Made by a program: the position numbers and the translations under genes. The notes beneath the pieces are model-generated. The model made no database searches and was not told the origin of the DNA. It was given only the letters and a program-made list of their open reading frames with translations. Shown piece after piece: positions 16,582 to 25,925 of a stretch of 64,000 nt of DNA (its first letter is position 1; each line of letters begins with the position of its first letter). The DNA is from Escherichia coli (GTDB taxonomy: Bacteria; Pseudomonadota; Gammaproteobacteria; Enterobacterales; Enterobacteriaceae), in NCBI RefSeq assembly GCF_013315695.1, contig NZ_CP054353.1; one strand, written 5' to 3'.

Positions 16582-16838
16582 CCGCGAAGAATAACGCATC
16601 ACTATTTAAATGTATAATTTTTATTTTGTATATGTCGCCAACAATATATTCACCAGACTTATTATCATTTCAGAAGAATTATTTGATTAAGGTTTTACTT
16701 AAGGCGTAACAAATAATATTTATCGTCTAACTGAACTTCTCCTTTAGGATGCTTTCACTCCCCGAAATGGGGATAAAAGGCAAGGTGATGCTGCCAACTT
16801 ACTGATTTAGTGTATGATGGTGTTTTTGAGGTGCTCCA

Positions 16839-17114
16839 GTGGCTTCTGTTTCTATCAGCTGTCCCTCCTGTTCAGCTACTGACGGGGTGGTGCGTAACGG
16901 CAAAAGCACCGCCGGACATCAGCGCTATCTCTGCTCTCACTGCCGTAAAACATGGCAACTGCAGTTCACTTACACCGCTTCTCAACCCGGTACGCACCAG
17001 AAAATCATTGATATGGCCATGAATGGCGTTGGATGCCGGGCAACAGCCCGCATTATGGGCGTTGGCCTCAACACGATTTTACGTCACTTAAAAAACTCAG
17101 GCCGCAGTCGGTAA
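16839..17114 (+). CDS. insA: IS1 InsA
   Basis: 91-aa ORF identical to the InsA of copy 1. Confidence 0.95.
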
Positions 17115-17536
17115 CCTCGCGCATACAGCCGGGCAGTGACGTCATCGTCTGCGCGGAAATGGACGAACAGTGGGGCTATGTCGGGGCTAAATCGCGCCAG
17201 CGCTGGCTGTTTTACGCGTATGACAGGCTCCGGAAGACGGTTGTTGCGCACGTATTCGGTGAACGCACTATGGCGACGCTGGGGCGTCTTATGAGCCTGC
17301 TGTCACCCTTTGACGTGGTGATATGGATGACGGATGGCTGGCCGCTGTATGAATCCCGCCTGAAGGGAAAGCTGCACGTAATCAGCAAGCGATATACGCA
17401 GCGAATTGAGCGGCATAACCTGAATCTGAGGCAGCACCTGGCACGGCTGGGACGGAAGTCGCTGTCGTTCTCAAAATCGGTGGAGCTGCATGACAAAGTC
17501 ATCGGGCATTATCTGAACATAAAACACTATCAATAA
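17033..17536 (+). CDS. insB: IS1 InsB frame
   Basis: 167-aa ORF identical to the InsB of copy 1. Confidence 0.9.
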
Positions 17537-17551
17537 GTTGGAGTCATTACC

Positions 17552-18357
17552 TCGATTACGGACGTAATTATGGCGTAATGTACGACATCGAAGGCTGGAC
17601 CGATATGCTGCCTGAATTTGGCGGTGACTCTTATACCAATGCAGACAACTTTATGACTGGTCGTGCCAACGGCGTCGCGACTTATCGTAATACTGATTTC
17701 TTCGGTCTGGTAAATGGTCTGAACTTCGCAGTGCAGTATCAAGGTAACAACGAAGGTGCCAGTAATGGTCAGGAAGGCACCAACAACGGACGTGATGTTC
17801 GCCATGAAAACGGTGACGGCTGGGGTCTTTCCACAACATATGATTTAGGCATGGGCTTTAGCGCTGGTGCGGCATACACCTCATCTGACCGCACCAATGA
17901 CCAGGTTAACCATACTGCGGCAGGTGGTGATAAAGCAGACGCGTGGACTGCTGGGCTAAAATACGATGCTAACAATATTTACCTGGCAACCATGTATTCA
18001 GAAACACGTAACATGACCCCGTTTGGCGACAGCGATTATGCAGTTGCGAACAAAACCCAGAACTTTGAAGTTACTGCACAGTACCAGTTTGATTTTGGTC
18101 TGCGTCCGGCAGTCTCTTTCCTGATGTCTAAAGGCCGTGACCTTCACGCTGCCGGTGGTGCAGACAACCCGGCAGGTGTTGATGATAAAGATCTGGTTAA
18201 ATACGCCGATGTTGGCGCGACTTACTATTTCAACAAAAATATGTCCACCTACGTTGACTATAAAATCAACCTGTTGGATGAAGATGACAGCTTCTACGCT
18301 GCCAACGGCATCTCTACCGATGATATTGTCGCTTTAGGTCTGGTTTATCAGTTCTAA
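17552..18357 (+). pseudogene. ompN: Outer-membrane porin OmpN, 5-prime-truncated by IS1 (about 110 N-terminal codons missing)
   Basis: Frame is open from the first base after IS1 (..[25 protein letters not shown]...LGLVYQF*), which aligns to the middle and C-terminus of OmpC-family porins; no signal peptide or promoter remains. Confidence 0.85.
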
Positions 18358-18365
18358 ATCCTCCT

Positions 18366-18390
18366 GCCCGCTGTTATGGCGGGCTTTTTC
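18366..18390 (+). terminator. Rho-independent terminator after ompN
   Basis: Stem gcccgc / gcgggc with 6-nt loop followed by TTTTT. Confidence 0.6.
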
Positions 18391-18497
18391 TGCTTATTCT
18401 TCCTCCTTTGATCTAAATTAAAAATGTGAACTCCGTCATTACACAAAAAGTGTCATCTGGCGTTACACTTTATGCGGATACTAAAACAGGAGGTTTT

Positions 18498-18932
18498 ATG
18501 AACAGAACGATTCTTGTCCCTATCGATATTTCCGATTCAGAATTAACTCAACGCGTGATTAGCCACGTTGAGGCAGAGGCAAAGATTGATGATGCAGAGG
18601 TTCATTTCCTGACGGTAATACCTTCACTGCCCTACTATGCCTCTCTGGGTTTAGCGTATTCCGCAGAATTACCGGCAATGGATGACCTGAAAGCGGAAGC
18701 CAAATCGCAACTGGAAGAGATCATTAAAAAATTTAAACTGCCAACCGACAGAGTGCATGTCCATGTTGAGGAAGGCTCGCCCAAAGACCGCATTCTGGAA
18801 TTGGCGAAGAAGATACCCGCTCATATGATCATCATTGCTTCCCATCGACCGGATATCACCACTTATCTGCTCGGTTCTAACGCCGCAGCTGTCGTGCGTC
18901 ACGCAGAGTGCTCCGTGCTGGTTGTGCGCTGA
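18498..18932 (+). CDS. uspF: Universal stress protein F
   Basis: ORF track 18426..18932; ATG at 18498 preceded by [26 protein letters not shown]... (144 aa), UspA-family fold. Confidence 0.9.
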
Positions 18933-18939
18933 CACTAAC

Positions 18940-23417: not shown

Positions 23418-24233
23418 TTGACAAGCAGGAGTAATACTTTGGACATAAGAAAAGATTTGGAATCAGTAGCCCAATATATAAGTAGACTGTTATCGATAGG
23501 GTACGAATTTAGCCGTTTTGATAAAGACTGGGTCCATTTAAAAAATGAAGAGGATTTTCGTTTTATTTCAAGAATACCATTTGCAACACGGAATAAAGTG
23601 GAAGCAGTATATGCGGAAGGCAGAGATATGGCACTTTATATGTCTGATGAGTTACTATCCATTAATAGTGATTTCAGTAAATTTCCAACGTTGACAGCTA
23701 TTATCGAAAGATTCAAGGACACTTGGGTTTATGGTAATTATGATTCGGAAGTGCCAAATATAGCTAAAAAAACATGCGAAGAAAATGCAGTTCAGCTTTG
23801 GTCTGTAGAACAGATGTGTTCCTTATTCAAAAAGCAAGAACAACTATTAGCAGCAGTACGTATCACATTGCAGATGCTACAAGATAGTGACCTATACAAG
23901 ATGGAGAATGGTTTACCTCTTATGAAACAAGAAGCTAATATTCATGTCAGTGGAATTTCCGGTTCTAGTATCAATATACATTCTTCAGGTGCTACGGCAA
24001 CTACTACGACAAATTATAATGAGCCCACAATATTTAATGAAATGATTGAGGCAATAAAATCGAAAAACTTTGATGGCGCGACAGAATCACACCTTATAGA
24101 TAATGTACAGGCACTGGCAGCCAGTCACCAAAGCGGCTGTTTTAAAGAAGCATATAAGGACTTTATTAATAATGTATCTGCACACATTACAGTATTTACT
24201 CCATTTCTTGCTGGCATATCATCTTTACTATAA
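23418..24233 (+). CDS. Orphan hypothetical protein in AT-rich islet (function unknown)
   Basis: 271-aa ORF from the track; no in-frame ATG near the 5-prime end, likely start TTG at 23439 with AGGAG 8 nt upstream; AT-rich codon usage unlike flanking genes; C-terminal low-complexity Ser/Thr stretch and hydrophobic tail. Confidence 0.5.
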   Translation: MTSRSNTLDIRKDLESVAQYISRLLSIGYEFSRFDKDWVHLKNEEDFRFISRIPFATRNKVEAVYAEGRDMALYMSDELLSINSDFSKFPTLTAIIERFKDTWVYGNYDSEVPNIAKKTCEENAVQLWSVEQMCSLFKKQEQLLAAVRITLQMLQDSDLYKMENGLPLMKQEANIHVSGISGSSINIHSSGATATTTTNYNEPTIFNEMIEAIKSKNFDGATESHLIDNVQALAASHQSGCFKEAYKDFINNVSAHITVFTPFLAGISSLL

Positions 24234-24556
24234 AATAAGTGACAGATACATTAATACATAACGAAAAATCTTTTTAGCTACTCATTCATATCAATAGTGC
24301 CCTACCATAGGGCACATTATTCGTGGAACTCGTTTATGACAAAAGAATTTTGATGGTCTGCCTGATGCAACAGATATAATTCTGGGAGTGTTGAGTAAGA
24401 GTATTCACCGGCGCTCAACACAAATGCCAGCAAGCACGAGAAAGAGCAGGTAAGCCTGAGTGTTCAGGAAATGTTTGAAAAGGCTAATATGTGGCTGGTT
24501 TCAGATTAAACGCCTTGAACCGTCATATTACTTAAGTACAATCCGCCTAGACTAGC

Positions 24557-24630
24557 AATCATTCAATAGTAGCACTATCGAGCGCTCGCCAGTCGAGCGC
24601 AATCATGCTCCTTGCATACGGCGTGCAGCA
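24557..24630. repeat. Diverged direct repeat, right copy
   Basis: aatcattcaatagtagcactatcg ... cttgcatacggcgtg; partner of 23078..23150. Confidence 0.5.
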
Positions 24631-24778
24631 TATCACAAAACGATTACGCCATGACGGACTGCAGGCTACTCAATATCTGGCTCGATTAGCGTATTGGCAT
24701 GATTTAACAGACCCCGGCGCTTATTCCCAGCAACCTGAAGCGGCACCTCTTCCTGTGTTGCGTTTACAACTCCCTTTT

Positions 24779-25072
24779 TCACCCACGATTAACCAACAGC
24801 CAGACCAGCAGACAAGCCACCACCGGCACAGAAAAATCCATCAGGCTTGCCACATCCCACACGCGCGGATCAAAACCACCCCACCACGGCATATTCATAC
24901 GCTTGCCATGCCCGAACATTTCAATCCAGCGATATTCTGCCTGGGTATGTTCACGAGCAATGAAGAACGTACAACCGGCTATCGCCCCGTAAGCCCAGTT
25001 TCCGGTAAAAAGACCAACCAGTACCTGCGCAGCCACAGCACAAAGTGCATGAAGGAAAGGTGTTATATCCAT
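24779..25072 (-). CDS. Small hydrophobic (probable inner-membrane) protein, function unknown
   Basis: ORF track 24779..25087; ATG at 25070-25072 preceded by AGGA; MDITPFLHALCAVAAQVLVGLF... with about three predicted TM segments; its C-terminus is homologous to the fragment encoded by the left direct repeat. Confidence 0.5.
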   Translation of the reverse strand: MDITPFLHALCAVAAQVLVGLFTGNWAYGAIAGCTFFIAREHTQAEYRWIEMFGHGKRMNMPWWGGFDPRVWDVASLMDFSVPVVACLLVWLLVNRG

Positions 25073-25148
25073 TTTCATCCTACCCAATAAAACGAGGCGC
25101 TCGGCCCCTTAATATTATTTAGACGCAAGCGTCGGTAATGACTCCAAC

Positions 25149-25652
25149 TTATTGATAGTGTTTTATGTTCAGATAATGCCCGATGACTTTGTCATGCAGC
25201 TCCACCGATTTTGAGAACGACAGCGACTTCCGTCCCAGCCGTGCCAGGTGCTGCCTCAGATTCAGGTTATGCCGCTCAATTCGCTGCGTATATCGCTTGC
25301 TGATTACGTGCAGCTTTCCCTTCAGGCGGGATTCATACAGCGGCCAGCCATCCGTCATCCATATCACCACGTCAAAGGGTGACAGCAGGCTCATAAGACG
25401 CCCCAGCGTCGCCATAGTGCGTTCACCGAATACGTGCGCAACAACCGTCTTCCGGAGCCTGTCATACGCGTAAAACAGCCAGCGCTGGCGCGATTTAGCC
25501 CCGACATAGCCCCACTGTTCGTCCATTTCCGCGCAGACGATGACGTCACTGCCCGGCTGTATGCGCGAGGTTACCGACTGCGGCCTGAGTTTTTTAAGTG
25601 ACGTAAAATCGTGTTGAGGCCAACGCCCATAATGCGGGCTGTTGCCCGGCAT
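25149..25652 (-). CDS. insB: IS1 InsB frame
   Basis: 167-aa ORF identical to the other InsB copies. Confidence 0.9.
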
Positions 25653-25846
25653 CCAACGCCATTCATGGCCATATCAATGATTTTCTGGTGCGTACCGGGT
25701 TGAGAAGCGGTGTAAGTGAACTGCAGTTGCCATGTTTTACGGCAGTGAGAGCAGAGATAGCGCTGATGTCCGGCGGTGCTTTTGCCGTTACGCACCACCC
25801 CGTCAGTAGCTGAACAGGAGGGACAGCTGATAGAAACAGAAGCCAC
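25571..25846 (-). CDS. insA: IS1 InsA
   Basis: 91-aa ORF identical to the other InsA copies. Confidence 0.95.
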
Positions 25847-25925
25847 TGGAGCACCTCAAAAACACCATCATACACTAAATCAGTAAGTTGGCAGCATCAC
25901 CCCCGGCGTTAAGGGGAGAGATAAG

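Follow-up and report, generated by a model that had tools for sequence, protein, structure and literature searches.

Why do three identical copies of IS1, all within 64 kb of an Escherichia coli genome, lack the target-site duplications (TSDs) expected of this element, and has the DNA between the two copies that face in opposite directions ever been turned around? We address these questions by comparing the flanks of each copy with those of its closest relatives and with genomes in which the same sites are free of IS1.

Three IS1 copies and their missing duplications

Members of the IS1 family are about 768 bp long, have imperfect terminal inverted repeats of about 23 bp, produce an 8-9 bp TSD on simple insertion, and express the InsAB' transposase through a −1 programmed frameshift at an A6C motif. 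The window (the whole 64-kb stretch of DNA analysed here) contains three copies, each of 768 bp and 100% identical in every pairwise comparison:

6598-7365, plus strand: IS1 copy 1, IS1A type, at the junction of a 9,135-bp deletion as measured against AF10
16784-17551, plus strand: IS1 copy 2, with its left end at the original insertion site and its right inverted repeat (IRR) now fused to ompN nucleotide 329
25134-25901, minus strand: IS1 copy 3, at the junction of a prophage-core deletion of about 40.2 kb as measured against strain 1428

The terminal repeats, IRL GGTGATGCTGCCAACTTACTGAT and IRR GGTAATGACTCCAACTTATTGAT, agree at 18 of 23 positions; the A6C motif AAAAAAC lies at 17090 (IS position 307, in the insA/insB' overlap); InsA matches the Pfam families Zn_ribbon_InsA and HTH_Tnp_IS1 (PF03811, PF12759), and InsB' matches DDE_Tnp_IS1 (PF03400, E = 2e-78); and the same sequence is annotated in AF3 and MSB1_4I as 'IS1A family transposase, programmed frameshift'. 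All three are bona fide IS1 elements of the IS1A type. Copies 2 and 3 form an inverted pair spaced 7582 nt apart.

No TSD of 7-14 bp abutting the IS ends was found in any of the nine pairings of left and right flanks (1L, 2L, and 3L, each against 1R, 2R, and 3R), the best of which has 4 mismatches; the original prediction of three copies, two of them inverted and none with a TSD, is thus borne out. A search tolerant of offsets returned a single 9-mer, the AT-rich ATAATAAAC common to 1L and 1R at 10-15 nt from the IS ends, and we rejected it as a copy-1 TSD because it does not abut the element and because its two copies are already 9.1 kb apart in IS-free AF10. The absence of TSDs in the window is meaningful, since all seven independent simple IS1 insertions at the same loci in other strains have a TSD of 8-9 bp (that of F467, at ~9-10 bp, being deduced from overlapping BLAST coordinates). 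Frequent causes of missing TSDs are adjacent deletions and IS-IS recombination (PMC11708052). We consider it probable (roughly 0.85) that each IS1 copy marks its own collinear deletion, with a loss of 9.1 kb for copy 1, 0.36 kb for copy 2, and about 40 kb for copy 3, where the copy-1 and copy-3 sizes are taken from the comparators AF10 and strain 1428 rather than from the true ancestor; with each copy at its own scar, no TSD would be expected anywhere and no flanks would pair.

Copy 2 and the loss of the ompN 5′ end

Copy 2 lies between the small RNA gene micC and what is left of the porin gene ompN:

16469-16584, minus strand: micC sRNA gene, intact (Rfam RF00121, 104 bits versus a gathering score of 90)
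16775-16783, plus strand: surviving left TSD copy, AAAAGGCAA (9 bp), from comparison with AF3, MSB1_4I, and AF10
17552-18357, plus strand: ompN 3′ remnant (CDS nucleotides 329-1134), a pseudogene

The window comes from an IS1-rich lineage of clinical E. coli whose closest relatives are MSB1_4I and AF3. In both relatives the copy-2 site, 26 bp upstream of the ompN start codon and with micC 199 bp to the left of the element, reads AAAAGGCAA-IS1-AAAAGGCAA, a perfect 9-bp TSD beside an intact ompN, and AF10 has the empty site with one AAAAGGCAA; the absence of a TSD from copy 2 in the window is therefore secondary. Window 1-17551 corresponds to AF3 L001 6250-23800 and window 17552 onward to L001 24163 onward; the intervening 362 bp (L001 23801-24162), starting at the first base past the IRR, are absent from the window, and comparison with MSB1_4I gives the same loss. 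Lost with these 362 bp were the right-hand copy of the TSD, the leader of ompN, and nucleotides 1-328 of its coding sequence, and the remnant has neither promoter, RBS, signal peptide, nor the first 109 codons. This gap, flush with the copy-2 IRR, is the sole structural difference between the window and either relative; MSB1_4I otherwise differs from the window by 3 SNPs in 64 kb.

The breakpoints of the 362-bp gap have no microhomology (...CATTACC/AAAAGG at the IS end versus ...GGTTCTT/TCGATT), a finding that favors an event set by the IS terminus over replication slippage. The resulting right junction occurs in none of the other genomes in a search of 5,426 complete E. coli genomes. The endpoint lies exactly at the IS terminus, the IS has been kept in place, and the sister strains place it there before the deletion; judged by its sequence, copy 2 has the features of a textbook IS1 adjacent deletion. 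We rejected the idea of a single IS1 hotspot upstream of ompN, since the insertions in GF31, E08, UTME-14, GN03590, and AF10 each have a position of their own.

In the history that we propose, copy 2 would first have transposed in upstream of ompN with formation of the 9-bp TSD, a state kept in the sisters, and its IRR would later have been joined to a point 362 bp downstream while IS1 itself stayed put. For this second step the most likely route is intramolecular transposition by the IS1 transposase (the classical 'adjacent deletion'), which would have removed the right TSD copy together with the 5′ third of ompN.

IS1-promoted adjacent deletions of this kind, attributed to intramolecular transposition with retention of the IS, are classic in the gal region of E. 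coli K-12. Like the copy-2 event they start at an IS1 terminus, keep the IS1, lose the TSD on the deleted side, and have endpoints without microhomology; copy 2 adds a TSD-bearing progenitor, and differs in that it occurs in a natural isolate, not as a selected laboratory event, and in that its dependence on the transposase is presumed. The general concept of IS adjacent deletion is described in PMC11708052, as are multistep IS150 events in the E. coli long-term evolution experiment, where, as for copy 2, an insertion with a TSD came first and a later IS-flush adjacent deletion abolished the TSD; the element there is IS150/IS3 rather than IS1, and the order of events comes from a time series rather than from sister genomes.

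Copies 1 and 3 and the sit-carrying prophage

The copy-1 event would have deleted ydbD'-pdxI-ydbA: missing are the 5′ part of ydbD, pdxI (ydbC), and ydbA, and the element is flanked by a ydbD 3′ remnant on the left and by the region upstream of ydbL on the right. Window 5829-6597 corresponds to AF10 L002 326-1094 and window 7366-16783 to L002 10230-19647, both on the same strand. Both copy-1 junctions are common only to AF3 and MSB1_4I among the 5,426 genomes searched. F467 was rejected as a sharer, its IS1 being an independent insertion in ydbD 240 bp away.

Copy 3 lies in a Rac-type prophage whose right end and neighbor include the following features:

18498-18932, plus strand: uspF, intact (mapped by collinear alignment from AF3 L001 25109-25543, offset −6611)
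19132-19157, plus strand: attR core of the Rac-type prophage (26 bp), a direct repeat of 33455-33480
19517-22966, plus strand: sitABCD, an iron/manganese ABC transporter, cargo at the right end of the prophage
23162-24747, plus strand: unannotated module with a 271-aa ORF (23418-24233) and a frameshifted dinI-like gene

The repeat at 33455-33480, in the 5′ region of ttcA, is attL, and the position of attR matches the ttcC' remnant of K-12. Copy 3 meets the 3′ end of a tail-fibre gene with its IRR, and its IRL is 24 bp from ydaG, on the upstream side. Window 24748-25131 corresponds to strain 1428 11250-11635 and window 25902-40053 to 51847-66001, on the same strand; strain 1428 has a full-length sit-bearing prophage, with sitABCD in the same position, in which the two copy-3 flanks are 40.2 kb apart, and the ydaG-side sequence runs on uninterrupted in strains 573, H1, and K-12. 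The copy-3 event would have removed about 40 kb of prophage core, between the racR side and the tail-fibre gene. As for copy 1, both junctions are common only to AF3 and MSB1_4I in the search of 5,426 genomes; strains 573 and H1 were rejected as sharers, their IS1 insertions in sieB or the sieB-kilR spacer being independent. The module at 23162-24747 is absent from the strain 1428 prophage and present in AF3, MSB1_4I, and AF10; a Pfam search of the ORFs in 23019-25090 gave no matches. AF10 has its own TSD-less IS1, which joins the tail-fibre region to a truncated recE, indicating that IS1-linked prophage deletion recurs in this clade.

The cryptic prophage Rac of E. coli K-12, a case of decay through IS elements, resembles the window prophage in its ttcA integration site, in the loss of its structural-gene core, and in its flanks, with intR...recET...sieB-ydaF-ydaG on one side and attR-uspF-ompN on the other. 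The window remnant differs in carrying sitABCD at the attR end and an IS1 that bridges the deletion, whereas K-12 Rac keeps racR-ydaS...stfR-tfaR-pinR and has an IS5 in lomR.

Within the limits of genome comparison, these alignments establish the deletions, their exact endpoints, the collinearity of what remains, and, for copy 2, a TSD-bearing progenitor. Around each of the three copies, the flanking DNA runs collinearly with the IS-free comparators AF10, strain 1428, and K-12.

Deletion, inversion, and the route to the junctions

RecA recombination between perfect 768-bp inverted repeats can invert the DNA between them, and copies 2/3 and 1/3 are such repeats, known substrates for inversion. 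The original prediction accordingly read the missing TSDs as the result of past recombination between IS1 copies, by inversion or deletion, and held that the segment 16784-25901 can invert. Inversion as the cause of TSD loss predicts that 2L pairs with 3R and 3L with 2R, but each pairing shows at least 4 mismatches, gene order and orientation beside every copy are those of the IS-free references, and the copy-2 loss is directly accounted for by the 362-bp deletion; we regard inversion as very improbable, and as a historical explanation it appears already refuted by collinearity. What survives of that reading is rearrangement after insertion, with deletions involved; recombination among these three copies is excluded because their flanks are unpaired and each copy bridges its own deletion. 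Comparison of junctions among relatives, the check originally proposed, traced the copy-2 TSD loss to the 362-bp deletion but did not reveal the segment in opposite orientation: in the window, AF3, and MSB1_4I (all three genomes with both copies), end-to-end alignment gives one orientation, the ancestral nifJ-micC-ompN-uspF-attR-sit, with neither a second orientation nor reciprocal exchange of flanks. Matching duplications, which were to count against the original prediction, are absent from the window but present for copy 2 in AF3 and MSB1_4I. The segment does contain uspF, the att core, sitABCD, and the unannotated module as had been described, but only the 3′ part of ompN (nt 329-1134).

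Compound transposons with inverted IS1 copies are an established class, exemplified by Tn1681 (Tn9 has direct copies), and two intact identical inverted IS1s bracketing a cargo operon invite the suggestion that the 7.6-kb segment arrived as a unit with sitABCD, the more so as sit homologues occur on plasmids (993 plasmid places match an ompN-uspF-sitA query at 80-90% identity). Unlike Tn9 and Tn1681, the copy 2-3 segment has no outer TSD (AAAAGGCAA versus CCCGGCGTT) and no sign of past movement; internally it consists of native chromosomal and prophage DNA, in the ancestral order and found without these IS1s in strain 1428 and AF10, and the junction pairs occur only at this chromosomal locus. 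Such an origin is scarcely credible and, on these comparisons, would count as already refuted. It is also very unlikely, if slightly less so, that the 362-bp gap is an assembly artefact of the source genome: the junction is private to the window among 5,426 complete genomes and IS copies are classic misassembly sites, but the missing DNA is unique and contiguous with the rest of ompN, there is no repeat boundary at its distal end that would give an assembler reason to drop it, and the breakpoint coincides with the final base of IS1, as for a biological event at an IS end.

A more serious alternative, though still an unlikely one, is that the deletions arose by RecA-dependent recombination between two direct IS1s, the second now lost, with the transposase idle in the deletion step. 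The product is the same as that of adjacent deletion, and such recombination is a frequent cause of missing TSDs (PMC11708052); the lineage is rich in IS1, with at least 40 IS1 places each in AF3 and MSB1_4I among the matches listed; IS1 has repeatedly entered ompN, ydbD, and the prophage in other strains; and in GN03590, for example, an identically oriented IS1 sits only 23 bp away from the endpoint seen in the window. On the other side, one extra insertion would be needed per deletion, three in all; for copy 2, two events would have to fall within the very short divergence from MSB1_4I; and a second IS1 at ompN nt 320-329 was found in none of 5,426 genomes. The two routes leave identical junctions, indistinguishable by sequence, and all copies are identical, leaving no chimeric-IS signal to use. 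With the copy-2 deletion flush with its IRR, no second IS1 is needed, and we infer that the transposase, not homologous recombination with a lost second IS1, probably made the deletions. Copies 1 and 3 may have followed the same transposase route, or recombination between two direct IS1 copies. A TSD-bearing intermediate for copies 1 and 3 was found in none of the 5,426 genomes, with only three genomes of the sub-lineage available; that these two copies were single-step 'insertion-with-deletion' transpositions, never with a TSD, is conceivable but doubtful. IS movement coupled to large rearrangement has been proposed (PMC11708052), and if the single-step route does hold here, a single IS1 event would suffice to prune a prophage or genomic island in natural lineages.

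We wish to emphasize that the phenomenon is already known; this is ordinary IS behaviour and nothing new in kind. The main value of the analysis is one of correction: the missing TSDs would be the trace of deletions linked to IS1 rather than of inversions, and none of the available genomes has the copy 2-3 segment in flipped orientation. Copy 2 would be a clean natural example of insertion followed by adjacent deletion, with its progenitor preserved in sisters (in MSB1_4I at the distance given above). The identical IS1 copies that remain make the locus prone to further change: 9.4 kb could be lost by recombination between copies 1 and 2, which are direct repeats, and the intervening DNA could be inverted by recombination of copy 3 with either copy 2 or copy 1, so that a future inversion of the 7.6-kb segment is plausible though unobserved in the three genomes. 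As it stands, the locus shows a Rac-type prophage with sit cargo under active erosion by IS1, which has also inactivated the porin gene ompN; the prophage remnant is devoid of all structural, lysis, and replication genes, and the loss of these core genes would leave the sitABCD cargo fixed in a remnant unable to form phage particles.

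The IS1 copies and their flanks

The window is a stretch of E. coli chromosome reversed relative to K-12, with the order ynbD-ynbA, ydbD', IS1, ydbL-ynbE-ydbH-ldhA-hslJ-ydbJ-nifJ(ydbK)-micC, IS1, continuing after copy 2 as 'ompN-uspF-attR-sitABCD-..., IS1, ydaG-ydaF-sieB-kilR-racC-recET-ralR-xisR-intR-ttcA. A repeat search located three IS1 copies of 768 nt each, mutually 100% identical:

IS1 copies found by repeat search of the window
6598-7365, + strand, IS1 copy 1
16784-17551, + strand, IS1 copy 2
25134-25901, - strand, IS1 copy 3

All three have the hallmarks of canonical IS1. 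Their terminal inverted repeats (GGTGATGCTGCCAACTTACTGAT and GGTAATGACTCCAACTTATTGAT) agree at 18 of 23 positions, and an A6C frameshift motif occurs at IS position 307; of the Pfam domains, InsA has Zn-ribbon and HTH_Tnp_IS1, and InsB' has DDE_Tnp_IS1 (E = 2e-78). Copies 2 and 3 are exact inverted repeats of each other, 7,582 nt apart.

Left and right flanks, read in IS orientation, were compared in every combination over 7 to 14 nt, including the pairings predicted by inversion (left flank of copy 2 with right flank of copy 3, 2L/3R, and the reciprocal 3L/2R); no target-site duplication (TSD) was found in any pairing of the three copies, the minimum being 4 mismatches. The only match in an offset-tolerant search was the 9-mer ATAATAAAC, present on each side of copy 1 at 10-15 nt from the IS ends; since it does not abut the element, and both occurrences pre-exist 9.1 kb apart in a genome without that IS1, it is not a TSD. 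With this match dismissed and at least 4 mismatches everywhere else, the original prediction of an inverted IS1 pair in a window where every copy is TSD-less is borne out.

Deletions beside the IS1 copies

Copy 2 has a two-step history that is shown directly, a TSD-making insertion followed by an adjacent deletion. In the sister strains AF3 and MSB1_4I, ompN is intact and copy 2 lies 26 bp upstream of its start codon, within a perfect 9-bp duplication, AAAAGGCAA-IS1-AAAAGGCAA; AF10, a related strain of a sister clade, shows the site unoccupied, with AAAAGGCAA once. The sole structural difference between the window and the sister strains is a loss from the window of 362 bp beginning immediately after the right terminal inverted repeat of copy 2. 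The left junction is as in the sister strains; on the right, the window lacks the TSD copy, the leader of ompN, and CDS nt 1-328, and what is left of ompN is an 806-nt remnant (17552-18357). No microhomology was found between the two breakpoints, and the right junction is absent from all 5,426 complete genomes in the collection. A deletion that begins exactly at an IS terminus, with the IS retained, is the defining signature of IS-promoted adjacent deletion, of which IS1 is the classical example. The same succession of insertion and adjacent deletion has been described elsewhere, in a paper that gives adjacent deletions and recombination between ISs as the frequent reasons why TSDs are missing (PMC11708052).

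Copies 1 and 3 each stand in place of a far longer segment. Window 5829-6597 aligns with 326-1094 of the AF10 region (L002) and window 7366-16783 with 10230-19647 on the same strand; copy 1, its flanks being collinear with AF10, therefore replaces 9,135 bp, a stretch that in AF10 holds the 5' part of ydbD together with pdxI and the gene for the large ydbA-type protein. For copy 3 the comparator is strain 1428, whose full-length Rac-type prophage in ttcA carries sitABCD beside attR in the same orientation as the window. Window 24748-25131, the 3' end of a tail-fibre gene, corresponds to 11250-11635 of the strain 1428 region, and window 25902-40053 to 51847-66001 on the same strand, so that about 40.2 kb of prophage core, with its tail, head, terminase, lysis, replication, and repressor genes, has given way to copy 3. 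The left terminal inverted repeat of copy 3 lies 24 bp upstream of ydaG, at a point through which the sequence runs unbroken in strains 573, H1, and K-12. Both junctions of copy 1, and the junction pair of copy 3, are common only to AF3 and MSB1_4I. Nearby IS1s in other strains are independent insertions: that of F467 lies 240 bp from copy 1 and has its own TSD, and those of 573 and H1 sit in sieB and the sieB-kilR spacer. By analogy with copy 2, we infer that copies 1 and 3 would likewise have inserted and then promoted adjacent deletions.

Independent simple IS1 insertions in the same loci all retain a TSD (7/7), of 8-9 bp where directly read:

Control IS1 insertions
AF3 and MSB1_4I, copy 2: TSD present
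AF10, in ompN: TSD AATACGCCG
F467, in ydbD: TSD of about 9-10 bp, judged from overlap of the BLAST coordinates
GF31, in micC: TSD present
E08, in micC: TSD present
UTME-14, ompN nt 62-70: TSD present
GN03590, ompN nt 306-313: TSD present

Within this data set, a TSD is present where there is no deletion and absent where there is one, without exception. IS1 has repeatedly targeted the nifJ-micC-ompN interval (window 16384-17951). Five independent insertions were examined there, 2 in micC (GF31, E08) and 3 in ompN (UTME-14, GN03590, AF10); all differ in position, which rules out a single-site hotspot. The recurrence may stem from selection, relaxed or positive, for losing micC or ompN. A further 18 genomes are listed with an IS1 between nifJ and ompN.

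The best explanation for the TSD-less copies is thus three separate IS1-associated deletions. The original prediction had read the missing TSDs as traces of past recombination between IS1 copies, by inversion or deletion. Deletions stand; inversion does not, nor does exchange between copies, since each of the six IS1 flanks runs collinear with references lacking the IS, and segment 17552-25133 keeps its ancestral orientation, so that inversion had no part in TSD loss and none of the three copies recombined with another. A compound-transposon origin of the sit segment is likewise excluded: its outer ends have no TSD, and its interior is resident DNA found in other strains without IS1s. As to the deletion step itself, we favour a route in which IS1 transposase would act by intramolecular transposition. 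A transient second IS1 in direct orientation could give the same sequence product by homologous recombination, and we consider this route less likely, because it needs two events rather than one within a very short divergence time, and because no genome carries the hypothetical second IS1; the nearest candidate, that of GN03590, is 23 bp away, in an unrelated background, and is a divergent IS1.

The sit-carrying prophage and possible rearrangements

A 26-bp perfect direct repeat, AAGAAAGAACAATACAACCTGAACAA, at 19132-19157 and 33455-33480 marks the attR and attL cores, respectively, of the Rac-type prophage in ttcA. The remnant is probably fixed in place, given the 40-kb core deletion and an intR annotated as frameshifted in the near-identical AF3 and MSB1_4I records. 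The same prophage in AF10 has a TSD-less IS1 (L002 29599-30366) in the opposite orientation to copy 3, where it links the tail-fibre region directly to a recE truncated at its 5' end, an IS1-linked deletion that arose independently and has different endpoints.

Between sitD and the tail-fibre remnant lies a 1.6-kb module (23162-24747) with a 271-aa ORF (23418-24233) and a frameshifted dinI-like gene; its ORFs have no Pfam match. It is shared with AF3, MSB1_4I, and AF10 and is missing from the otherwise collinear strain 1428 prophage, which has a tail-fibre assembly remnant at that position.

Perfect inverted repeats of 768 bp are good RecA substrates, and it is reasonable that the 7.6-kb segment between copies 2 and 3 could invert, although the three genomes with both copies (window, AF3, and MSB1_4I) all have the same orientation (3/3). 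On the same reasoning, a 17.8-kb inversion could arise between copies 1 and 3, and recombination of the direct copies 1 and 2 could remove the 9.4 kb with ydbL-nifJ-micC.

An IS1-rich lineage

Identity of at least 99% across nifJ is found in only 5 of the 5,426 complete genomes, among them AF3 and MSB1_4I, both near-identical to the window: MSB1_4I (Australia, rectal swab) differs by 3 SNPs over 64 kb and one indel, and AF3 (UK, blood) by 6 SNPs over 43 kb and the same indel. The window strain is almost clonal with these rectal-swab and bloodstream isolates. AF3 and MSB1_4I each have IS1 at 40 or more places, and the lineage is therefore IS1-rich; this group of E. coli, with its expanded IS1, is distributed internationally and is rare among complete genomes.

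Rfam places three intact sRNA genes at their expected positions: RalA, the antitoxin to the Rac ralR toxin (31647-31825, -), FnrS (36133-36250, -), and McaS (39628-39723, +). At about 62.4-62.7 kb of the window, the MSB1_4I annotation (2377349-2379103) has a partial ABC permease gene abutting a 5'-truncated ycjT, which suggests that the ycj sugar-utilisation cluster has undergone a further deletion, apparently with no IS at the junction.

The feature is an ordinary one, already known in kind: deletions mediated by IS1, and the decay of a prophage, in an E. coli lineage rich in IS1.
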